From NCBI GenBank assembly GCA_016180645.1, contig JACPAV010000011.1:124001-158397 (forward strand): 34,397 nucleotides of DNA, written 5' to 3'. The stretch is from Nitrospirota bacterium. Lineage in GTDB: Bacteria > JACPQY01. The notes under the pieces were generated by a model. That model was not told where the DNA came from, made no database searches, and was given only the letters and a program-made list of their open reading frames with translations. A program made the position numbers and the translations under genes. Positions 7,628-20,402 of this stretch are shown in pieces. Every line of letters starts with the position of its first letter. The first letter of the stretch is position 1.

Positions 7628-8659
7628 TCAGGACACGGAGAGGCGAAGATGGGATTGGAGCCAGCGGGCGGCTTTGCCCAGCACCACGGGGGCGGGCTGA
7701 GAAACGTAACCGAGATCTCGACGGATTTTCGCGTCGGAGTAGTACCAGTACCGCTTCGCCGCGATCAGGACCATACCCATTTCGAGTTTGAGCCGGCTGT
7801 ACAGAAATCGTTCCACGGGTACCAGTGCCGCGCGCGGAAGTCGATAGAAGATGTTCAGCAAGGCGGGATTCACGGCTCGACGAGGAGCCTTGATACCCGT
7901 CGCGCTCTCCAGGATCCGGTACATCTCACGATATTCCAGGTTCTCCCCGCCCGAGAGATATTTTTCTCCGGCCTTGCCCTTTTCCAGGCCGAGGACCAGG
8001 GATGCGCCCGCGTCATCCACGCCCTGCACGTTGATCCCGCCGTCCAGGTACACGCTCATCTGCCCCTTCAAATAGGGGACGATGGCGCGCGACGAAGAGA
8101 GATACACATCGCCTTCTCCAAAGCAAAAATTGGGATACACGGTGACCACCGGCACGCCCTTCCCGACGAACTCGTCCCTCGCCTCTTCGCACTGCTTCTT
8201 GGCCCGCACGTAAGGAACCTTCCGCGCCAGATCTTCAAGATTGAATTGGACGGTTTCGTCCGCGGCCTCGCGTCCTTCACCCCGCCCGAAACCGAAGATC
8301 GAGCCGAGGAAAACAACTCTCGGGGTCCCAGCGGCCCGGCAGGCCTCGAACACGTTCCGGGTGGTCTGATAATTCGACCGGATCACTTCCTGTTCGAGCT
8401 TGGGATCCACGCTCATCCTCACCCACCCGGCCAGGTGGATCACACCGTCGCATCCTTTGACACACTCCTTGGCGAAAGCCAGATCGCCCAGATCTCCATC
8501 GAGGATTTCAACGCCGTTCTGGTGAGCGGCAAGATTCTCGATCTTGGAGCTTTTCCGGCGCGAGATCCGGACACGGTAGCCCCGCTCGGTCAGCACCCTC
8601 ATCGTGTGGGACCCGATGAAGCCGGTCGCGCCGGAGACGTAGACTCGTTCTTTGGCCAT
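7628..8659 (-). CDS. NAD-dependent epimerase/dehydratase (extended SDR, HpnA/DFR-like)
   Basis: VSGATGFIGS, VIHLAG, YxxxK (YVRAK). Confidence 0.88.
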   Translation of the reverse strand: MAKERVYVSGATGFIGSHTMRVLTERGYRVRISRRKSSKIENLAAHQNGVEILDGDLGDLAFAKECVKGCDGVIHLAGWVRMSVDPKLEQEVIRSNYQTTRNVFEACRAAGTPRVVFLGSIFGFGRGEGREAADETVQFNLEDLARKVPYVRAKKQCEEARDEFVGKGVPVVTVYPNFCFGEGDVYLSSSRAIVPYLKGQMSVYLDGGINVQGVDDAGASLVLGLEKGKAGEKYLSGGENLEYREMYRILESATGIKAPRRAVNPALLNIFYRLPRAALVPVERFLYSRLKLEMGMVLIAAKRYWYYSDAKIRRDLGYVSQPAPVVLGKAARWLQSHLRLSVS

Positions 8660-8683
8660 TTGGCCGCTGACTATATCGGAGAA

Positions 8684-9535
8684 TCAGCTCCCGTGCGAGG
8701 GGTGTGCCATGTTGCCCTTGCGTGCGGTCAACTGCCGGATCACAGCCAACACAACGAGCGCGGCTCCGAACGTGCACACCACCGTGGCCCCGGTGGGGGT
8801 GTCGAACCGGTAGGACCCCCACATCCCCAGCAGGCTCACGACGGTTCCCATCGCCCATCCAATGGCCAAGCGGTGCCCGATCGATTCCGAAAAGAGAATT
8901 GCCGCGACCGATGGAACGATCAAGTATGAGAACACCAAAAGGACCCCCGCGATGGCCACGGAGGACGTTACCATCACGCCGAATGTCGCGTAGAACAGGA
9001 AATCCCACATTCGCACATTGTACCTGCGCCTCACCTCACCATCCGACTCCGTGGAAATGGCCAGGAATGGTTTTCGCCACAGCCAATGCAACACCCCGAT
9101 CACGGAGTAGAGTGCGGCGAGCTTGATTACTTCGGTGGGGGTCACGGCCAGGAGATTCCCCACCAACAGGTGTTTGATGTGTTCCGCGCCCTCCGGAAGC
9201 CTGTCCATGATCAAGATCGCAGTCGCGGCGCCCATGGCATACACGATCCCGATGATCGCTTCCTGGGGAATTCGCCCGTTCCTTGCCCTCGTCAGGGCAA
9301 AGAGCGCCGCTCCCAACAGGGTGAATCCCAGCGAGAAGAGGTAGGCGGCCTGGCCGTGCAGCTCGAAGCCGCACAGCAAGGCGATGGTCGCGCCCAGGGC
9401 AGCCACTTGCGCCAGGGAAAGATCCACGAAAATGACGCCTCGCTCCACCACGTGGAGTCCCAAATAGGCGTGGATCCCGGTGATGACGAGGCACGCGACC
9501 GACGGCCAGAACAGGAATTGCGCAACTTCCATCAT
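8684..9535 (-). CDS. Zn/Mn-type metal ABC transporter permease
   Basis: Multiple TM helices; LGLHVVERGVIFVDLSLAQVAALG, EAIIGIVY, GVLLVFSYLIVP (ABC-3 family). Confidence 0.88.
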   Translation of the reverse strand: MMEVAQFLFWPSVACLVITGIHAYLGLHVVERGVIFVDLSLAQVAALGATIALLCGFELHGQAAYLFSLGFTLLGAALFALTRARNGRIPQEAIIGIVYAMGAATAILIMDRLPEGAEHIKHLLVGNLLAVTPTEVIKLAALYSVIGVLHWLWRKPFLAISTESDGEVRRRYNVRMWDFLFYATFGVMVTSSVAIAGVLLVFSYLIVPSVAAILFSESIGHRLAIGWAMGTVVSLLGMWGSYRFDTPTGATVVCTFGAALVVLAVIRQLTARKGNMAHPSHGS

Positions 9536-9539
9536 CGGA

Positions 9540-10457
9540 TCACCCCCGATTCTCCAAGGCTTCTCTTAGGCGCCGGACCTGCGCGTCGAAGAGATCGAAA
9601 TAGGTCTTGATTTCTTCCGTTCCTCCAACCGACGGAGGAAACACCACGAAAGTTGCGCCTCCTTCACGCGCGACTTTCTCGGGAAGTTTCGGATCGAAGT
9701 AAGGTTCCACCAGCACCAAGGGGATCGCCTCCGATCGCACCTGCTCGATCAGGTCATGAATATGCGCCGGCGAAGGTGGAATCCCCGGCTTGGGCTCGAT
9801 GTAGTTCACCACGTTGAGACCGAAACGCCCGGCAAAGTTCGGCCAGGAGTTATGATAGGTGACGACCTTGACTCCTTTGTAGGGAGCCAGAAGGGTGTCC
9901 CACTCCTTCTCTTTGCCTGCAAGTTTCACCTCAAATCGCGCGAAGTTGGCCACGTAGTCCTTCGCATGATCACGATCCAACGCGGCAAGCCTCTGAGCGA
10001 TACTCCTCGCGATGATCCGGCCATTGCCGGGATCAAGCCAGTAGTGGGGATTGCCGAGCGGATGCACGTCGCCGAGCGAGCGATCGACGCGTCCCTCCGG
10101 CCTTTGCGTGATGTTGCAGCCTTCGGAGGCATCCATGAAACCCATGTTGCCAGGGAGGATTCTCGGATTCCTCGCGTTGGTGAGCAGGGACGTGGCCCAC
10201 CCCACTTCGAGTTCGAGTCCCACCTGGATGTACAGATCGGCCCTCTTGAGTTTCAGCAGGTAGCTGGGCTTGGCCTCCACAAAATGGGGATCCTGGTAGC
10301 CTCGCGCGATGGGGGTGGCATCCACCCAATCGCCACCGACTTCGCGGGCCAACGCGGAGAGGTCTTCGGTAGTGGTCACCACCTGGACCTTGGCGAGAGC
10401 GAGTGAAGGAATTGCGGACAAGAGCGCGACGGACAGAAACATTGTTCGAATAGTCAT
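9540..10457 (-). CDS. Metal ABC transporter substrate-binding protein (ZnuA/TroA family)
   Basis: Start ATG 10457 with AAGGAGG Shine-Dalgarno; signal peptide; QDPHF, DVHPLGNPHYWLDP, YHNSW, EPKPGIPPS. Confidence 0.9.
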   Translation of the reverse strand: MTIRTMFLSVALLSAIPSLALAKVQVVTTTEDLSALAREVGGDWVDATPIARGYQDPHFVEAKPSYLLKLKRADLYIQVGLELEVGWATSLLTNARNPRILPGNMGFMDASEGCNITQRPEGRVDRSLGDVHPLGNPHYWLDPGNGRIIARSIAQRLAALDRDHAKDYVANFARFEVKLAGKEKEWDTLLAPYKGVKVVTYHNSWPNFAGRFGLNVVNYIEPKPGIPPSPAHIHDLIEQVRSEAIPLVLVEPYFDPKLPEKVAREGGATFVVFPPSVGGTEEIKTYFDLFDAQVRRLREALENRG

Positions 10458-10468
10458 GATAAACCTCC

Positions 10469-11590
10469 TTAGAACGGATCGGCGCCGTGCGGGCCGATAT
10501 TGAAAGTGACCTTGAGAAGGCCGAGGGTGTCTTCCGCCCCACCTTCCTTCCACACTTGCTTGCCTTGCAAACTTATCCGGCAGAATTCGGAAGTCGCAAA
10601 TGTGAGGTAAGCAAGACCGCCGGTCACACGATCCGATCTGTCCGTCGGCGACTCGGACCAGTCGTACCGGGCACCGGTGCGCCAGCGCCGCGCGAACTGG
10701 TATTCGAGGTGCGAGAACAGGCCGGCAGTCGCCAACGCGGAATCGGCCGCCCGCTCGCGGTTGTTCAAGAAAGCTTCTGTTTGCCAGAACCAGGAGCCGT
10801 AAATCGCCCGACGCGGATTCTTCCACCGCATCGTCAAGTCCACCCCGTAGAGTCGGTTTCCAGGTGTGAATGATTCGCCCGTCGCCTCGTCCGCGACCGG
10901 GCCCGCCGTCCCAAGGGCGACGCTGGCTCCAACATTGGCGTTCAACGCTTCGGTCAGGTCGTGGTAGCTGCTGAGACGGCCGACGTAAAGCAGGTCATTC
11001 CGGCCTGCGGCACCGAAGGCCGGGGTTTCCTCCGTGTCGGGCATATTCATCGCTTCGGCATCCAGGTTGATGAGCCACCATGGATTGGGAACGTGCCACG
11101 AGAGTGCTCCACCGATGCTCGCGAGGCCCTCATCGCCCAAGTACCGTTCCTGCGCAAGGGGGCGGTCGGCAAAGGCGGTTTCCGGCCTGTGAGTACGATT
11201 GAATTTCCCGAAGTCCGCCTTGAACTTCCCGAGCTTGAGCGACAGATCCGCAGGGAGCGCAAACCACGTGAGATATCCCTCTTCGAGATCGACGCCTCCC
11301 TCGCCTTCCACCGCTACGAAGAAGTCAGCCCGGGCGAAGGGGTCGACGACCGACTGGAAGGCCAATTCCGCTTCCTTGAATTGGAACCGCGGGGTCTTGT
11401 CTTCTCCCGCCTCCGTTTCCCTTTGCCCCGCTTCGGCCTGGAACCATCCGATGGCGCTGATATTCGGATTCAGAATGTTTGACGATTGCAGTGCTGCGCC
11501 GCTCGATTGGGGCGACGTGGATTGCGACCACGCAACCAGCGGGCCCGCAAGAAACGCAAGCCCGATCAGCGAAATGAAAACAACTCTCAT
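10469..11590 (-). CDS. Outer-membrane beta-barrel of the type found in metal-uptake operons
   Basis: Signal peptide; NPNIS, EAELAFQSVVDPF, EEGY, FGKFNRTH; C-terminal IGPHGADPF. Confidence 0.78.
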   Translation of the reverse strand: MRVVFISLIGLAFLAGPLVAWSQSTSPQSSGAALQSSNILNPNISAIGWFQAEAGQRETEAGEDKTPRFQFKEAELAFQSVVDPFARADFFVAVEGEGGVDLEEGYLTWFALPADLSLKLGKFKADFGKFNRTHRPETAFADRPLAQERYLGDEGLASIGGALSWHVPNPWWLINLDAEAMNMPDTEETPAFGAAGRNDLLYVGRLSSYHDLTEALNANVGASVALGTAGPVADEATGESFTPGNRLYGVDLTMRWKNPRRAIYGSWFWQTEAFLNNRERAADSALATAGLFSHLEYQFARRWRTGARYDWSESPTDRSDRVTGGLAYLTFATSEFCRISLQGKQVWKEGGAEDTLGLLKVTFNIGPHGADPF

Positions 11591-11620
11591 AAAACAGTTC
11601 CTCCAATGGCAAGAATCAGT

Positions 11621-11648
11621 TTCCTCGGGCTGGAGCCCTAAGGATGAC
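11621..11648 (-). repeat. Hairpin / single REP-like palindrome between leader ORF and outer-membrane gene
   Basis: Minus strand GTCATCCTTAGGGCTCCAGCCCGAGGAA (imperfect stem TCCT..GGGCT/AGCCC..AGGA). Confidence 0.5.
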
Positions 11649-11678
11649 GGATTGTTCGGCCCCTGTAGGCCGGAGGAG

Positions 11679-12071
11679 CTAGGCGCGAGGAGGAGACTGC
11701 TTGGGGGCGAGGAGGATCAGATCGACGGTGCGGAGGACCGGGCGGGCCACAACGCTCCGATCCGCAACCTGGCTCTCGGGCACCGAGAGCATTCGAACTT
11801 GGGATGCCGTACCGACCAGACTTCGGGCCGAGGCGAGAAACACACATCCATGATTATGGCCGGCCACATCCCTGCGCTCTTCGGCGTCCCCTGCCCACCC
11901 ATGGGCGGAAGGCAGGGACGCGGCGACCGAGGGATCTTGGTGAACGACCTCGCCGTGGCGGGGGCAGATTCGGTGTTGCGTGAAGGCCCCATGGGCCAGG
12001 GCGGAGATCTGACCGAGGACAAACAGGACGGCCACCCACCCAGCCATGCGCCTTCGCAGATTTGTCCGCAT
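11679..12071 (-). CDS. His/Cys-rich DUF2946-like upstream ORF of the metal-uptake operon
   Basis: RRR plus hydrophobic segment, HRICPRHGEVVH, HNHGC, C-terminal LLAPKQSPPRA; first gene of the operon. Confidence 0.7.
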   Translation of the reverse strand: MRTNLRRRMAGWVAVLFVLGQISALAHGAFTQHRICPRHGEVVHQDPSVAASLPSAHGWAGDAEERRDVAGHNHGCVFLASARSLVGTASQVRMLSVPESQVADRSVVARPVLRTVDLILLAPKQSPPRA

Positions 12072-12077
12072 TCCTCC

Positions 12078-12106
12078 AAAATACCTGCCGCTTCCCCGCT
12101 TGTCAA
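12078..12106 (-). promoter_or_regulatory. sigma70 promoter of the metal-uptake operon
   Basis: TTGACA-N17-TATTTT, 6 nt before ATG 12071. Confidence 0.65.
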
Positions 12107-12134
12107 TCCGGGCATATCGCGATACGCCAAAGCG

Positions 12135-12497
12135 ATGACCCCATCGCGCTTTCGAGAGTTGGTGGAAAAGGCTCTGGGGGAGCTACCCGAACAATTCCAG
12201 ACTCACGTGAGGAATGTCCAAGTCACGGTCAAGGCCGCCCCGGGCGCCGAAGCCGATGGGCAGCCGGACGCGGACACCCTGTTGGGCCTCTACGTGGGAG
12301 ATCCGCTCACGCAGCAGAGCGCGACCGAACCGCCGCTCTTCCCGGCCCGAATCTTCATCTACCGGGACAGCATCCTTCAGGAGAGCGGCGAGGATGAGCG
12401 GCTTATCGTGGAGGAAATCCGAATCACTGTGCTGCACGAGATCGGACACCACTTGGGGTTGGATGATGAGGAGATGGCGATTCTGGAGGAGGAGTGA
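12135..12497 (+). CDS. Minimal zincin metallopeptidase (Zincin_1/DUF1025-like)
   Basis: MTPSRFRELVEKALGELP...LLGLYVG...IFIYR...TVLHEIGHHLG. Real start is ATG 12135, not 11199. Confidence 0.88.
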   Translation: MTPSRFRELVEKALGELPEQFQTHVRNVQVTVKAAPGAEADGQPDADTLLGLYVGDPLTQQSATEPPLFPARIFIYRDSILQESGEDERLIVEEIRITVLHEIGHHLGLDDEEMAILEEE

Positions 12498-13748
12498 TCA
12501 GTCTTCGCGCTTGACAAGCCCTTCGCCGGACACGTACCAACCGTTGTGCAGAGGCGGCTCTCCCTCACCTGAAAAGGTGAGCTTGATGGCCTTCGGGTAA
12601 CTCTTCTGCTCCACTTGGAGGATGCTCGTACCCGACAGCACGATTTCGAAGGACTTCGGAGTCTTGTACGGTCCGCCGTTCCACGCCGACCACTTCCCGG
12701 TCACAGGGTCCTGTGTCCTGCTTTTCCGACCGTAATCGAGGAGCAGCATTCCATCCTGTTTCAATGCGCGCACGGACACGCTGGTCCGGCCCTTCAGGGG
12801 TTGACCGTAGATTCTGAGGGATTCCTCCGTCTCCACCGTCCAGAGCCGATCTTTCCCTCGCACTTCCGTGCCGAGCACCTTCATCCGGGTCACCTTCATT
12901 TGAGACGCATCCTGCCTGATATCCTGGTAGATGACTTTTCCCGCCGTCAGCGCGAAGTATTCCCCCGCGCGGATAGAGGCCAGCGTGTCGAGTCGAGTCT
13001 TCGCCGATTGGATTTCCGAGATGAGGCTTTCGGCCTGCTTCATCGCGTCGGAAGGCAGCCCTTCCGTCTTCAACTCCATCGCAGAGACGTACGCCTTCTC
13101 GACCTCCCCGGCGGCGAGGAGCTCCTTCATATCCTCCAAGGACCAGTACAATTGCCCCACCGAGGATTCCAAATCCCGGTAGCGCCGATCGGGTTCCTCC
13201 CCCAATCCCATTCCCAAATCCTCTCCGATCTGAAAGGCGCGGTGGAGTTCCATGTAGGCATTCAGGTGGCGACCTTTCTGGCGATGCTCCAATCCCGTTG
13301 CGATGTGTCCCACCATCTCAGCGGCCGCCAAACGCGCATCCGATTTCCGCTTGGGAAACGGCTGCGGACCGATCCGTTTCAGAACGGCGCGCGAGCGTTC
13401 ACCCTTTGCCGACTCGGATACGGTCCCATAATCAAGACCGCCTGATCGTAGCTTCTCCATGCCGTCCATCACCTCTTCCCAGTGGGCGGACTGTACCGCC
13501 TTGTCGATCCCGATCACCGCCAGGACATCCTGCATCCGGAGCAATCCTGCCCGCGACGGGATAACGAATTTTCCGGATCCGGCAGAAACGGCGAGCTGGT
13601 AATGATCGAGGGCCTCTTGAAATTTCCCCTGCTCTTCCAGTTGAGCAGCCAACTCGAAAGGCTTCTTCGACCGGTCGCAGGCGGAGAGGAGGACCGCCGC
13701 AATCATCGCGCCGGCTCGGACGTGGTGAACCAGGATGCTGTGTTTCAA
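12498..13748 (-). CDS. Hypothetical lipoprotein, TPR-like helical N-terminal half
   Basis: Lipobox LLSAC; AAQLEEQGKFQEALDHYQLA TPR-like segment; long ORF co-oriented with the upstream gene. Confidence 0.65.
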   Translation of the reverse strand: MKHSILVHHVRAGAMIAAVLLSACDRSKKPFELAAQLEEQGKFQEALDHYQLAVSAGSGKFVIPSRAGLLRMQDVLAVIGIDKAVQSAHWEEVMDGMEKLRSGGLDYGTVSESAKGERSRAVLKRIGPQPFPKRKSDARLAAAEMVGHIATGLEHRQKGRHLNAYMELHRAFQIGEDLGMGLGEEPDRRYRDLESSVGQLYWSLEDMKELLAAGEVEKAYVSAMELKTEGLPSDAMKQAESLISEIQSAKTRLDTLASIRAGEYFALTAGKVIYQDIRQDASQMKVTRMKVLGTEVRGKDRLWTVETEESLRIYGQPLKGRTSVSVRALKQDGMLLLDYGRKSRTQDPVTGKWSAWNGGPYKTPKSFEIVLSGTSILQVEQKSYPKAIKLTFSGEGEPPLHNGWYVSGEGLVKRED

Positions 13749-15656: not shown

Positions 15657-17225
15657 CTACTGGTGGCGGCGGCGCCAGAAGACATAGGCGCCGGTGAGGA
15701 ACAGGGCGCCCGGAATCAGGAGCATGGTCAACAGGGCCACATTCCGCATTTGAACCGAAGTCAGGCTCACCGACCGGAATCCGGGGGTCTTATCCCGGAT
15801 GGAGATGAGCGCCTCGCGGCGGGCGAGCCAGTTGACCATGTTGAGCATGAGATTGAGGTTGGCGGATAGGTTCACGTAGGCGTTCGATCCGAAATCGGAA
15901 TCCCCAACCACCACGAGGCGAGTCTCCCGCTTGTTCTCTTCCTCGGCCGCGTGGGCCTCGGCGCCTTCCTTCTTCTCGGTCACCGATGCGCCGCCTTCAA
16001 CCGCTTTCGTGACCACCAGAATCACCGGGAGCGGCCCCTTCTCGTCGCCCGCATCCAGCTTGGGTTTGGACATGTTGGTTTCCGCCCAGCTCTGCGGGGT
16101 CGTCTCGGCGAGCTTGACGATCGACACGCCCGACGGCGGAGTGGCCTGCGGCTTCACGGGACGACTCGTGGGAAACAGCGTGGCGTACTTGAAGTTCTTC
16201 GTGATTTCGTGGTCGCCGTACTGGGAAACGAGCGGGATGGTGTAGTCCGCGCCCAGCAATTTCGCGAGCGGATCGATGATGACCTCATCCCGCAGCTCGA
16301 CGCCCCAATCTTTGAGCCAGTCTTTCCAACCGCCGGAATCGGGATCCAGCATCATCAGGAGCCGCCCGCCGGCTTGCGCGTACTGTCCGAGCCGCTTCTG
16401 CTCCTCGTCGAAATACTTGAGTCGGGGGCCGGACACGATGACCACGGCGGCGTCCGCCGGAACCTTCTCCTGCTGCGCGAGCGCGAGCGGCCGCACCTGA
16501 TAGTTCTCGTCCTCCAGGGCTTTCTTGACCTGCGAATATCCGTTTTCTTCGGCATCGTCGGGATCCTTCTCGCCGTGGCCCTTGGTGAAATAGATGACGG
16601 GCGTCGAATCGGATGTGACCTTGACCACAGCGTTCGTCAGACTCTCCTCGTTGGTCTCCTCCATTTTCGTCTGATTGCCCTGGCTCTGGAGCACGATCGT
16701 GCCGAGGACCGTGACGCCGTATTCCTTGGCGCTGGCCGGCCGTTTGTAGGGGTCGACGAATTCCACCGTGAACCTGCCCTGGGCGGCGTGCTCGTATTCG
16801 GTGAGCAGGTCCTCGGCCTTCTTCCGCTCCGGAGTTCCCTCCTGGAAAAACGCCGTGACTTTGATATCCCGCTTGAGGCCGCCTACGAGCTTCACCGTCT
16901 TGTCGGTCAGGCTGTACAGCTTCGTTTCCGTGAGGTCCACGCGCCAGCTTCGTTTCACCCCGATGTAGTTGATCGCCACCATCACGCCCAGGACGATCAG
17001 GAGGAAGAAGCCTGCGCCACCCGCGTATCGAGTGCCCTTGGCGCTCAAGACGTTCTTGACGAGATCGAAGTACGCGAAGAGGGCGACAAGGAGGGACACG
17101 AGACCCGCGATGGCCAAGGCCGTAGGCACCGTGCCGAACTCGTCCGTCATGATCATGGCCACGGCCGCAGCGATCAACAGCCCGGCAGCCAGCGGAAGGA
17201 TCAGTTTCTTGAGTCGCAGCAACAC
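15657..17225 (-). CDS. GldG-like ABC transporter auxiliary component
   Basis: N-terminal TMs; RVDLTETKLYSL, FVDP, YFTKGHGE, GGRLLMMLDP, VVVGDSDF, NMVNWL; C-terminal TM ending WRRR. Confidence 0.85.
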   Translation of the reverse strand: MLLRLKKLILPLAAGLLIAAAVAMIMTDEFGTVPTALAIAGLVSLLVALFAYFDLVKNVLSAKGTRYAGGAGFFLLIVLGVMVAINYIGVKRSWRVDLTETKLYSLTDKTVKLVGGLKRDIKVTAFFQEGTPERKKAEDLLTEYEHAAQGRFTVEFVDPYKRPASAKEYGVTVLGTIVLQSQGNQTKMEETNEESLTNAVVKVTSDSTPVIYFTKGHGEKDPDDAEENGYSQVKKALEDENYQVRPLALAQQEKVPADAAVVIVSGPRLKYFDEEQKRLGQYAQAGGRLLMMLDPDSGGWKDWLKDWGVELRDEVIIDPLAKLLGADYTIPLVSQYGDHEITKNFKYATLFPTSRPVKPQATPPSGVSIVKLAETTPQSWAETNMSKPKLDAGDEKGPLPVILVVTKAVEGGASVTEKKEGAEAHAAEEENKRETRLVVVGDSDFGSNAYVNLSANLNLMLNMVNWLARREALISIRDKTPGFRSVSLTSVQMRNVALLTMLLIPGALFLTGAYVFWRRRHQ

Positions 17226-17230
17226 GGCCG

Positions 17231-17998
17231 TTACCTCCAGCGATGGGCGTCGATCGCCTGCTGCGAAATGACGATGCCCGTGAAAATCATGGTGATGAAA
17301 TAAATGATGTGCTTGGTGTCGAAGACCCCTTTGGTCAGGTCTTCCAGATGTTCGGAGATCGAAAGGTGATTGAGCACCTCACCGATCGGCCCGCTGATCG
17401 CCTCGCCCGCCCAGTTGAGAAGCCAGAGAAGAAGCAGCGAGCCGAAACCGATCAGCGCCGCGATGATTTGGTTCTTCGTCACCGACGAGGCCACCAGCCC
17501 GACGGCAAGGAAAGTCGCGCCAATCAGGTAGAAGCCGAGATACGCCAGCGCCATGGGGGCCGGATCGGGCCTCCCATAAAGGAGGAGGGTCAAGGGGAAC
17601 GGAGCCGTCAGGAGCACCATCACCGTGAAGAGTCCCAGACCGCCGAGGTACTTCCCGAGCGCAATCTGAAAGGTCGTGAGGGGAGACGTCAGAAGCAATT
17701 CGATCGTTTGGAGCCGCTTCTCTTCCGAGACCAGCCGCATCGTCAGAATCGGCATGATGAAGAGGATGACGATGCTCAGATTGTGCATGAGGGGGCGCAC
17801 GATCATTTCGTTGATATTGAGCTGTTCGAGCATTTGCGGGTTGCGGGAGGCGAGGAAGTAGTATGTGAGGAAGAACTTCAGGGAGACGGCGAAGAGGTAG
17901 CCCGAAATCAGCATGAACACGCCGCTCACGGCATAGGCCAGAGGCGAGGCGAAATAGGCCCGCATCTCCCGACCGGCGATATGGAGCACATTCTTCAT
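17231..17998 (-). CDS. GldF-like ABC-2 permease
   Basis: REMRAYFASPLAY, PILTMRLVSEEKR..TIELLLTSP, LGKYLG, NQIIAA; ATG 17998 overlaps the ATPase stop (ATGA). Confidence 0.88.
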   Translation of the reverse strand: MKNVLHIAGREMRAYFASPLAYAVSGVFMLISGYLFAVSLKFFLTYYFLASRNPQMLEQLNINEMIVRPLMHNLSIVILFIMPILTMRLVSEEKRLQTIELLLTSPLTTFQIALGKYLGGLGLFTVMVLLTAPFPLTLLLYGRPDPAPMALAYLGFYLIGATFLAVGLVASSVTKNQIIAALIGFGSLLLLWLLNWAGEAISGPIGEVLNHLSISEHLEDLTKGVFDTKHIIYFITMIFTGIVISQQAIDAHRWR

Positions 17999-18924
17999 GA
18001 CTGACCTTCTTCCGTCGTTAGGCGCACAAACACGTCCTCCAGAGTGATATTCACCGGCCGGAGTTCCAAGATCCCCCAACCCGCGTCAAAGACCAGCCGG
18101 GAAACATCTTTCCTCACGTCCTTGTTCAGCCCGCTCTTCACGAGCAGCGTGGTCTCATCCTTCTTTTCCACCTCGTCCACGCTCGCTACTTTCCGGATCT
18201 TGTCCACCAGCCCGTCCACCGGGCGGTCCACCTGAATCACGAACGCCTCCGACTGACGGACCTTCGACTGTAGGCCGTCGAGGCTGTCGCTTACGATGAT
18301 CTTCCCCTTGTCGATGATGATCACCTTCTGGCAGGTCATCGCCACTTCCGGGAGGATGTGGGTGGAGAGGATGATCGTGTGGTCGCCGGCCAGCGATTTG
18401 ATCAGCGCCCGGATTTCCCGGATCTGGACCGGATCAAGTCCGATCGTCGGTTCGTCCAGAATCAATACTTTCGGATTGTGAATGAGGGCTTGGGCGAGAC
18501 CGACGCGCTGCCGGTACCCTTTCGAGAGGTTTCCGATGACGCGCTCCTCGACTTCTTTGATCCCGACTTTGTACATGACGGATTGGAGCCGCTCCTCGCG
18601 ATCTTTGCGCGCAATCCGCTTGATCTTGGCGACGAAGAGGAGATACGCGCGGACGGTCATGTCCTCGTATAGCGGAGGGGTCTCGGGGAGGTATCCGATG
18701 ATCTTTCGCGCCTCGAGGGGCTGCGCGAGTACATCGATTCCTCCCACGCTGGCTTTCCCTTCATTCGGCATGAGGTAGGCGGAGAGGATTCGCATGGTGG
18801 TGGTTTTTCCTGCTCCGTTGGGACCGAGGAACCCGGCGATTTCGCCCGCCTCAATCTTGAAGCTCACGTTCTGAACCGCGGCGATCTCGCCGTATCGCTT
18901 CGTCAGGCCTTCGACTTCAATCAT
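17995..18924 (-). CDS. GldA-like ABC transporter ATP-binding protein
   Basis: GPNGAGKTT, LSKGYRQR, ILDEPT, STH. Confidence 0.93.
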   Translation of the reverse strand: MIEVEGLTKRYGEIAAVQNVSFKIEAGEIAGFLGPNGAGKTTTMRILSAYLMPNEGKASVGGIDVLAQPLEARKIIGYLPETPPLYEDMTVRAYLLFVAKIKRIARKDREERLQSVMYKVGIKEVEERVIGNLSKGYRQRVGLAQALIHNPKVLILDEPTIGLDPVQIREIRALIKSLAGDHTIILSTHILPEVAMTCQKVIIIDKGKIIVSDSLDGLQSKVRQSEAFVIQVDRPVDGLVDKIRKVASVDEVEKKDETTLLVKSGLNKDVRKDVSRLVFDAGWGILELRPVNITLEDVFVRLTTEEGQS

Positions 18925-19040: not shown

Positions 19041-20402
19041 TCATATGTCCAACACGACTCGATAGATAAAATTACCCCTTTGGATTTCGGCGAGTATACT
19101 CGCCTGACCGCGCATATTCAAGACCGTTTCGCGAAAATCATCCAATGAATACAACACGCGCGAATCCAATCGCAGGAGAATGTCCCCCGCCCGGATTCCC
19201 GTCTGATAGGCCGGGCTCCCCGGACGGACCTTCGAAATGGAAACGCGCCGACCCGGCCCTGCTTTCACGTTGAATCCCAACATCTCGAAACCCAAATCCT
19301 CCGCTCTCGCGTTCGGGAAGACCGTCACCACCACCGGGATGACTCGCTTTGTCCCCTCGCGAAAGATTTCCGTCCGGATCGTGTCGCCGGTTCGGTATCC
19401 GCGAAGGAGCGAGTAAAAGTCCTCACGGTATTGCACGGGACTGTCTTCGAGCGACGTGATGATGTCCTGCCGTCGGAGACCCGCTTTATCCGCAGGGCTG
19501 TCCGCTTCCACCTTCGTGACAACAACGCCCCGGGAGACACCGAAGTAGTTCGAGAGTTCGTCGTTGATCGCCTGCACGCGGACTCCGTACCACGGGATCG
19601 TCACTTGCCCCTGGGTGAGGAGGTTGCTCATGATGCGGTTCGCGCGATCGATCGGGATGGCGAATCCGATTCCCTGCGCCTTGGCCACAATGGCCGTGTT
19701 GATGCCGACCGTTTGCCCGAGGATGTTGAGAAGCGGCCCGCCGGAGTTGCCGGGATTGATCGAGGCGTCGGTCTGAACGAAATCCTGATACACGCGATCG
19801 CCGGTCTTCACCGAGCGGTGGAGCGCGCTCACCACACCCACGGTCACGGTGTGGGAAAGCCCGAAGGGATTTCCGATGGCGATGACGGTTTCGCCGATCA
19901 TGATATCGTTGGAGCGACCCATTCCGAGGGTCGGCAATCGAATCGCTCCGCTCTCGGTTTTCACGCGGAGCACCGCGATGTCCGTGTCCGGGTCCGCCCC
20001 TACCGGTTCGGCAAGGTATTCCTTTCCATCCACGAGAGTGACTTTGATCTTCGTGGCCAGGCGGACGACGTGCTCGTTGGTCAGAATGATGCCCTGGGGA
20101 TCGATGATGGCGCCGGAGCCGAGGCTTTCGTACACGCGTTCTCTTGGGAGGGAGTACATGTCGAAAAAGTCCTTGAAGAACTCGTCGAAGAACGGGTCCT
20201 GGAAGCCGAATGGCGCGCCTTGCCGCTCCTGCGTGCGCGTTTCCGTGTTGATATTGACCACGGCCGCGCTCGCCTTTTGAACGACCTCCACAACGGCATC
20301 GCGCCGGTAGAGATTGACCTCAGCGGCCTCTGCGAGAGTACGGAGTCCTGGGTGCGGGGTTCCCAGCAGCAGCAGGACCAGAACGGCTTTCTTCATTTCC
20401 AC
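19041..20402 (-). CDS. HtrA/DegP-family serine protease with two PDZ domains
   Basis: Signal peptide; TNEHVV, DIAVL, GNPFGL, QTDASINPGNSGGPL; two PDZ domains. Confidence 0.93.
   Translation of the reverse strand: MEMKKAVLVLLLLGTPHPGLRTLAEAAEVNLYRRDAVVEVVQKASAAVVNINTETRTQERQGAPFGFQDPFFDEFFKDFFDMYSLPRERVYESLGSGAIIDPQGIILTNEHVVRLATKIKVTLVDGKEYLAEPVGADPDTDIAVLRVKTESGAIRLPTLGMGRSNDIMIGETVIAIGNPFGLSHTVTVGVVSALHRSVKTGDRVYQDFVQTDASINPGNSGGPLLNILGQTVGINTAIVAKAQGIGFAIPIDRANRIMSNLLTQGQVTIPWYGVRVQAINDELSNYFGVSRGVVVTKVEADSPADKAGLRRQDIITSLEDSPVQYREDFYSLLRGYRTGDTIRTEIFREGTKRVIPVVVTVFPNARAEDLGFEMLGFNVKAGPGRRVSISKVRPGSPAYQTGIRAGDILLRLDSRVLYSLDDFRETVLNMRGQASILAEIQRGNFIYRVVLDI

Follow-up and report, generated by a model that had tools for sequence, protein, structure and literature searches.

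The closest described counterparts of the system discussed here are two small proteins of the DUF2946 kind, CruR (Bp2923) of Bordetella pertussis and CutF of Rhodobacter capsulatus. CruR carries a CxxC motif at residues 90-93 and an RAPP motif at residues 139-142; the spacing between them is conserved, and altered spacing impaired regulation (Roy et al., PMC9426467). That the ribosome arrests at RAPP has been demonstrated in vitro, and the arrest is lost in the R139A mutant (PMC12992588). For CutF, the distance between the ligand motif and the proline motif is put at 45 residues (PMC9973294); when the ribosome stalls on it, a stem-loop concealing the ribosome-binding site (RBS) of cutO is melted (PMC9973294; bioRxiv 10.1101/2025.02.05.636593). 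Leaders of the DUF2946 type that combine a signal peptide with Cys/His ligands and a C-terminal proline motif, to which CutF adds a masked RBS, are already in print in these same two sources. Here we consider a stretch of 34,397 nucleotides from a Nitrospirota bacterium (contig JACPAV010000011.1), called the window in what follows, in which a gene of 130 codons, ORF130 (11679..12071), is the first of an operon that resembles a system for the uptake of metals. To our knowledge, metal-sensing regulation by a nascent peptide has so far been documented only for copper, in CruR and CutF. On the basis of sequence comparisons we lean, if not by much, towards understanding ORF130 as a cis-acting, metal-responsive and probably zinc-responsive pausing leader of the CruR/CutF (DUF2946) kind, which would gate the translation of the genes placed downstream.

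The original prediction, made from the DNA letters, had described the open reading frame (ORF) that comes first in a metal-uptake operon, with a signal-like N-terminus, two His/Cys clusters (HRICPRH and HNHGC), a spacer and a C-terminal APKQSPP. All of these are present on the minus strand, to which the coordinates given below refer unless stated otherwise. The protein opens with basic residues and then a hydrophobic stretch (MRTNLRRRMAGWVAVLFVLGQISALA); this part (residues 1-30, 11982..12071) is a candidate export signal or membrane anchor, for which AlphaFold2 proposes a helix at residues 2-30, with a predicted local distance difference test (pLDDT) of 91-98. The first ligand cluster, H27...H33-x2-C36-x2-H39-G40...H44 (11940..11993), comprises HRICPRH as residues 33-39 and is modelled with two short strands, at 33-35 and 42-44. 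The second, H72-N-H74-G-C76 (11844..11858; HNHGC, residues 72-76), stands where DUF2946 proteins have CxxC, and where a relative of ORF130, P0065, reads HDHEDCLLC. A linker follows (residues 77-117, 11721..11843), the sequence of which is not conserved but the length is, and it leads to the C-terminal motif L118-x-x-L121-A-P-K-Q-S-P-P128 (11688..11720). This is the candidate pause or arrest site, which would place P127 and P128 in the P and A sites of the ribosome. The KQSPP tail that had been announced is there, and is conserved in the family as KxSPP, but it is not the bare end of the protein: in the tail LILLAPKQSPPRA, APKQSPP (nt 11688..11708) is followed by R, A and the stop codon.

It may be added that the hydrophobic segment terminates in a small-x-small site (A-L-A in the window), right before the 99%-conserved H27 (11993..11991). 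This could be a signal-peptide cleavage site, and cleavage at that place would make His the first mature residue, hence a possible amino-terminal metal ligand. Both a MYXO-CTERM-type sorting signal and a lipoprotein signal were ruled out by inspection of the sequence, the tail of ORF130 not being hydrophobic and a lipobox being absent.

The size of the family depends considerably on how it is looked for. A word-indexed search retrieved ORF130 itself and one relative, which shares 33% identity with it and has identical last 11 residues (LLAPKQSPPRA), while an exhaustive HMMER search of 1.84 billion representatives (E<=1e-3) brought 387 representative relatives, clustered at 50% identity. The best 150 matches provided a family alignment, A1, of 143 sequences, seven longer ones (164-266 aa) being left out. 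Near the C-terminus, [AS]PK.[SGP]PP is present in 149 of these 150 matches, and in these 149 proteins PP is followed by one residue in 71, two in 36, three in 27 and four to ten in 15, never by none; the variable position of K-x-S-P-P is occupied by T (41), Q (35), N (31), S (17), H (9) or others (16). Seven residues are invariant among the 143 aligned members (H33, C36, C76, P123, K124, P127 and P128), and conservation is at least 90% at H27 (99%), H39 and G40 (both 97%), H72 (93%), A122 and S126, with H74 at 84%. The motifs HxxCxxH(G) and APKxSPP, the conservation of which had been put forward as a check of the original prediction, are thus invariant or nearly so. At the level of DNA, the codons of the motif vary synonymously at every position in 62 sequences, with four codons for Ala, TCG, TCA, TCC or TCT for Ser and CCG, CCT, CCA or CCC for Pro; because this variation occurs beneath invariant residues, selection acts at the level of the peptide. 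The motifs of ORF130 are more than the product of chance. The family has nevertheless no name: a profile search brought together 57 database entries, all of them lacking a precomputed Pfam domain and, where a name is given, called 'hypothetical protein', and an NCBIfam scan of the 143 relatives returned nothing relevant. One of the 57 entries, P0197, comes from the cultured bacterium Archangium violaceum. The phylum of the window genome is represented by two genomes in the collection, and each has one copy of the leader.

The distance from C76 to P127 ranges from 47 to 55 residues and is 51 or 52 in 106 of the 143 sequences, so that the spacing, also proposed for scrutiny at the outset, proves to be conserved; between residues 84 and 117 no column of the alignment attains 50% identity, and the distance from C36 to C76 is looser (34-51). 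A linker of arbitrary sequence and fixed length is typical of a molecular ruler, and by analogy with what has been reported for CruR it may well act as one here. These data have to be set against another reading, in which ORF130 would be a stable accessory protein that binds metal in the periplasm while anchored in the membrane, for instance as a chaperone or gate partner serving ZnuA and the porin or receptor, APKxSPP being then a docking or turnover motif, and the RNA helix described below an ordinary device of translational coupling. We find this unlikely, while acknowledging what speaks for it. AlphaFold2 with the family alignment predicts a helix (2-30), a short hairpin (33-44), a short helix after C76, and coil for the remainder. 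The N-terminal helix and the beta-hairpin around H33-H44 are modelled with confidence (pLDDT 82-98 over residues 1-50), three ligand clusters could form a His/Cys site, and the gene always adjoins transport genes. Yet pLDDT drops to 55-68 over residues 51-100, for an overall predicted template modelling score (pTM) of 0.40, and it would be unusual for a folded domain to leave residues 84-117 unconserved when their number is fixed to about one residue. Moreover, it is over the last 7-11 residues that conservation is highest, the short tail behind them varying in length without ever being reduced to zero, and the DUF2946 relatives act in cis, CutF being degraded after export (PMC9973294).

How close are these relatives? 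The original prediction saw in DUF2946 and CruR an analogous system. The likeness of architecture stands, but analogy says too little, as distant homology is likely for the family: 27 of the 143 relatives match PF11162 at E<=0.1, and P0065 has, at the place of HNHGC, a true CxxC (HDHEDCLLC), yet ends in APKTSPPLV. When 76 relatives were scanned singly, two exceeded the PF11162 cut-off (gathering score 23.7 bits), namely P0065 with 27.1 bits and P0026 with 24.1 bits. The matches are colinear, residues 14-137 of P0002 for instance being aligned with positions 2-117 of the 117 of the profile, and in the ESM Atlas the neighbours are unnamed myxobacterial clusters first, then DUF2946 clusters (6 of 30 hits, score 0.93). 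The ORF130 family is likely, as judged from such comparisons, to be a diverged and unannotated branch of the DUF2946 superfamily, of the CruR/CutF kind, with ORF130 itself as a putative member. Within this branch, CxxC would likely have been changed to HxHC and RAPP to KxSPP, and an N-proximal HxxCxxHG would have been added. A search for canonical DUF2946 proteins gave two matches in 151 genomes, and none in the 88 genomes of one class at a threshold of 1e-5, which was too strict; a homolog search with one such protein, that of L089, which ends in RAPPV, found only itself. Two tandem DUF2946-like ORFs are seen at L089:938-1796 (minus strand, genome G072), the one with CEHC and a RAPPV end, followed by the other with CTYC and RGPP.

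A detailed comparison with CruR brings out what has been kept. In both cases a small protein, predicted to be largely unstructured and provided with an N-terminal export signal (which is deduced from the sequence in ORF130), is encoded by the first gene of a metal-uptake operon, before an outer-membrane transporter. In both, a Cys ligand motif is found about 50 residues ahead of a C-terminal PP with a few residues after it, the distances C90-P141 in CruR and C76-P127 in ORF130 being 51 residues each. PF11162 recognizes some relatives of ORF130 above its cut-off, but not ORF130 itself. The differences concern the ligands (CxxC in CruR, HxHxC and an extra N-proximal HxxCxxHG in ORF130), the proline motif (RAPP in CruR, APKxSPP in the ORF130 family, without Arg at position -2), the metal (copper in CruR, a ZnuA-type (zinc) partner operon for ORF130) and the region that follows, a 162-nt gap with Rho-dependent termination in CruR (PMC9426467) as opposed to an 88-nt structured gap with a masked RBS. 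With the RAPP-like peptides at large (SecM, ApdA, ApdP, ApcA), the family has in common that a small exported protein, the gene of which lies upstream of a regulated one, carries an X-X-P-P core close to its C-terminal end. It differs in that the residue two before the first Pro is chiefly T, Q, N, S or H and never the defining Arg, while the basic residue that is invariant, a Lys, stands one place earlier. RSPP has been reported to be arrest-permissive and depleted from proteomes, but this is with Arg (PMC12992588).

The likeness to CutF lies in the signal peptide, in the ligand motif, in a C-terminal proline motif followed by R-x-stop (GPPPRL in CutF, SPPRA in ORF130) and in an RNA structure that keeps the RBS of the following gene out of reach, and that a stalled ribosome is proposed to melt. 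ORF130 also passes the filters used to collect CutF-like proteins (PMC9973294), namely fewer than 150 aa, PP within the last 15 residues and a same-strand neighbour within 1000 nt, the N-terminal signal being deduced from the sequence and the AlphaFold2 helix. In contrast, CutF controls a detoxifying oxidase and its stall is prolonged by the metal, whereas an uptake system predicts the opposite sign; PPP in CutF is SPP in ORF130; and the intergenic stem-loop of CutF is a separate element, whereas in the window the codons of the stall site are themselves the masking arm. As for the His-rich variant serving other metals, HxxCxxH and HxHC are indeed conserved, but the idea is not a new one, since the CutF survey (PMC9973294) had earlier put forward a role with other metals for those CutF-like proteins that have His ligands. 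The accessible text of its supplement makes no mention of porin, ZnuA or SPP. In the literature that we searched, as far as its accessible parts go, the subfamily, the APKxSPP motif, the link with ZnuA operons and the use of pause codons as a masking strand were not found, and one of the 29 clusters of PMC9973294, the logos of which lie outside the part seen, might overlap with the family.

The operon itself speaks for the transport of zinc. The gene that follows ORF130, which we propose to be the gated one, codes for a porin-like outer-membrane protein of 373 aa (10469..11590; Porin_O_P, PF07396, E 6.9e-7, 29.3 bits for a cut-off of 20.9). Next come a ZnuA-type periplasmic binding protein (9540..10457; PF01297, E 2e-53), with its start at 10457, 11 nt past the porin stop, and an ABC-3 (ZnuB-type) permease (8684..9535; PF00950, E 1.8e-33) that starts 4 nt past the ZnuA stop. 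The ZnuA protein retains all three His ligands of zinc-type sites (DPH, NPHYW and YHNSW align), and among solved structures its best relatives are 2ov1/1pq4, of the zinc-uptake binding protein from Synechocystis; because of these two features, zinc is the likely metal. No ATPase gene follows the ABC-3 permease in this operon, the next gene being an NAD-dependent epimerase (region 7628..10457, minus strand). Several Myxococcota loci are likewise devoid of an ATPase gene, and the ABC-3 permease often comes there as a fusion with HEAT repeats (L017, L018, L041, L047, L066).

A similar organization is met in other genomes. Scanning species-representative genomes with the pattern C[PA]EHGEL[IV]H, fixed by a 17-row sub-alignment, gave 68 loci, nearly all of them in metagenome-assembled genomes of Myxococcota and one labelled Planctomycetota, and in 60 of these the leader is complete and ends in the motif. 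In these 60 loci the next gene on the same strand encodes a TonB_C-Plug-barrel receptor (26 loci), a homolog of the window porin (12 loci, E 3e-46 to 2e-8), ZnuA (5) or an ABC ATPase (3); it is unassigned in six, and in eight there is no candidate gene or the contig ends. In position, too, the original prediction is borne out: the leader heads an operon for an outer-membrane transporter and ZnuA in 46 of the 52 loci where the gene downstream could be read. Of the 12 loci of the porin type, ten go on to ZnuA and/or ABC-3 in the same order as in the window, and in G001, the only relative from the same phylum, the leader is followed by the porin homolog. The TonB-dependent receptors that come after the leader in Myxococcota have a TonB_C domain at their N-terminus, before the plug (L019, L021, L029, L031 and 22 other loci).

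Between ORF130 and the porin gene, an 88-nt gap holding a hairpin had been anticipated. The intergenic region (11591..11678) is exactly 88 nt long (C 27, G 22, U 21, A 18), folding predicts hairpins in it (e.g. 11657..11672), and the Porin_O_P match follows. A predicted helix encloses these hairpins. Its 5' arm (11689..11702, with C 11695 bulged) is made of the codons for K124-Q-S-P-P128, and its 3' arm (11592..11604) is made of the porin Shine-Dalgarno sequence, GGAGGA (11599..11604), and of the spacer that separates it from the AUG (11588..11590). This helix has 13 bp, with pair probabilities of 0.72-1.0 whether 146 or 572 nt are folded, and two hairpins are enclosed between its arms. The duplex between the tail and the RBS is worth -18.2 kcal/mol, as against -8.7 +/- 2.05 for shuffled tails, none of 2000 reaching this value; of all 364 windows in the ORF130 coding sequence, it is the tail that pairs best with the RBS; and 0.3% of synonymous recodings of the tail, drawn with the codon usage of the porin gene, pair equally well. 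A codon choice that favours pairing with the RBS is a further argument against ORF130 being a plain accessory protein. The entire 5' arm would be covered by a ribosome that holds P127 in its P site and P128 in its A site.

The output of the same sensor-leader might also be transcriptional, as in CruR: the paused ribosome would then block the loading of Rho in the gap, and its release would cause transcription to end, through Rho, ahead of the porin gene. This is how CruR acts, with a gap of 162 nt (PMC9426467), and no other family member controls a transporter for uptake; several loci of the family, besides, have gaps of 100-280 nt. The gap of the window, however, is only 88 nt long and predicted to be structured, its composition (C 27, G 22), neither C-rich nor G-poor, does not suggest a rut site, and the RBS appears to be directly sequestered by the codons of the pause site. 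No intrinsic terminator is present in the 88-nt gap either, two terminator-like matches falling within ORF130. All this makes the Rho-based scenario rather improbable in our opinion.

That the masking switch is general in the family is partly supported. In a synonymous-recoding test, 13 of 44 loci fell at <=0.05, for about two expected, 34 of 44 lay below the median, and the mean z was -1.2. The codon CCT, which makes CCUCC, accounts for 43 of 124 PP codons, compared with 72 of 612 other Pro codons in the leaders; this enrichment could instead reflect selection for slow decoding. In a subgroup of 18 members placed before receptors, the P-P-A codons CUCCUGCC are opposite GGCAGGAG, 6 nt before the start, around two hairpins. 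There 83% of cells are paired, the whole named structure reaches 87.6% unslid against 34-44% when the 3' partners are slid, and one compensatory change speaks in favour.

We may now describe how the system would operate. A ribosome translating ORF130 would pause when P127 occupies the P site and P128 the A site, L-x-x-L-A-P-K-x-S-P being then located in the upper exit tunnel. It would cover the K-Q-S-P-P codons, which otherwise pair with the Shine-Dalgarno sequence of the porin gene and its spacer, and as long as the pause lasts the porin start site would be free, so that the porin would be translated, ZnuA and the permease following by coupling. Once the ribosome has finished and departed, the 13-bp helix would re-form and the operon be shut. 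The length of the pause would be set by metal bound to the His/Cys clusters (H33, C36, H39; H72, H74, C76), the second of which, at a fixed 51-52 residues from the pause site, would be just outside the ribosome tunnel; sensing might take place in the periplasm or in the cytoplasm. Metal on the nascent chain, most likely zinc, would shorten the pause and turn uptake off, a sign of the CruR type being expected because the operon is a metal-uptake system. The interpretation of ORF130 offered by the original prediction is supported at the level of sequence, each check that it had suggested there having turned out positive; arrest at SPP and the response to metal are inferred. One may go further and surmise that APKxSPP is an undescribed arrest module independent of Arg, that the family is the first nascent-chain sensor of zinc, and that zinc bridging both clusters releases the arrest, the codons pairing again with the Shine-Dalgarno sequence; this extended proposal we hold only tentatively, as a possibility that falls short of even chances.

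A number of observations weigh against this picture, and they are of several kinds. Some bear on kinship: ORF130 has no Pfam or NCBIfam match, it does not match DUF2946 (PF11162) at E<=0.1, and it is not among the four weak PF11162 matches of its own genome at E<=10. Comparison by hhalign of A1 with a single canonical DUF2946 protein (that of L089) was not significant (E 0.13), its best stretch pairing the second ligand cluster with CEHC. Others bear on the pause, K-x-S-P-P being devoid of the Arg which, two residues before the first Pro, marks the R-[AG]-P-[PG] core of the RAPP-like peptides; and ribosomes supplied with EF-P are expected to get through a plain SPP quickly. The confidently modelled N-terminal helix and hairpin fit a stable membrane protein as well. 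With regard to the RNA, the receptor subgroup shows a single compensatory change, a synonymous CCT-to-CCC matched by A-to-G, and this is the sole covariation; RNAalifold, applied to the same subgroup, predicted the two inner hairpins but missed the outer helix. In 26 of 44 loci the RBS is paired with the tail in the minimum-energy fold, a modest excess over the 19.5 obtained with shuffled tails and the 17 obtained with an upstream segment of the coding sequence as the tail, and the downstream starts in this set of 44 loci were chosen by the best Shine-Dalgarno match, which may favour pairing. Family-wide counts so close to the controls also speak for the reading of ORF130 as a stable accessory protein, with the helix as ordinary coupling. 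In G001, a local fold pairs the Shine-Dalgarno sequence with codons just upstream of APK, outside the footprint of the paused ribosome, and this pairing is lost in the full-length fold. Finally, the sample of loci is biased towards Myxococcota by the use of a single peptide pattern, and related genomes are not independent; and a search of sequencing runs found the locus in four DNA runs of one study, from which the sequence may derive, with no RNA run listed.

Upstream of ORF130, a promoter-like site, TTGACA-17 nt-TATTTT (12078..12106), matches the consensus and nothing more, with one site for 0.1 expected in shuffled sequences; it would put the start of the transcript at or next to the ATG of ORF130. 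GGAGGA adjoins this ATG with a 1-nt spacer (region 12069..12106, minus strand), as GAGG stands immediately before the ATG in G001, and ORF130 may, to judge from the sequence, be translated from a leaderless or near-leaderless mRNA. The gene that diverges from ORF130, on the plus strand from 12135, is of the Zincin_1 family, and the 63-bp divergent region that separates them contains a perfect 10-nt palindrome, TATCGCGATA (12115..12124), which may be an operator. These upstream elements lend themselves to yet another explanation, that of coupling which is constitutive: by the pause at PP and the helix, translation of the porin would be tied to that of the leader without any sensing of metal, any ribosome that reads the tail opening the helix, and metal control would be entirely transcriptional, for example through a Zur-type repressor at the promoter. 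We deem it very improbable, as it leaves the invariant H33, C36 and C76 and the fixed distance from C76 to PP unexplained, and upstream of the G001 homolog nothing corresponds to the palindrome. Returning to the locus as a whole, no Rfam family matches positions 11000-12600, the one match obtained, to a snoRNA, being at chance level (E 0.24) and outside this region; a riboswitch is not supported.

Further away in the window, a three-gene run (15657..18924, minus strand) resembles an ABC-2 type exporter, as judged from the translations of its ORFs, with an ATPase (17995..18924), a permease (17231..18079) and a large accessory protein of 522 aa. An HtrA-like serine protease can be read, again from the ORF translation, at 19041..20402.

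If ORF130 does act as a pausing leader, the sensing of metals by nascent peptides would be extended to the uptake of zinc, with a new conserved pause motif that does without Arg, and it would be extended as well to Myxococcota and to a phylum known in our collection from two genomes, lineages that the published surveys have barely covered. A sensor, a ruler, a brake and an RNA switch would then all be contained within a single gene of 130 codons. Giving a name to the family, with its 387 clusters, would improve the annotation of many zinc-uptake operons, and the existence of a homolog in a cultured host, Archangium violaceum (P0197), makes tests feasible. The window, for its part, presents an unusually clean design for testing the way in which a start site is opened by a paused ribosome, since the proposed pause site and the masking strand consist of the same codons.

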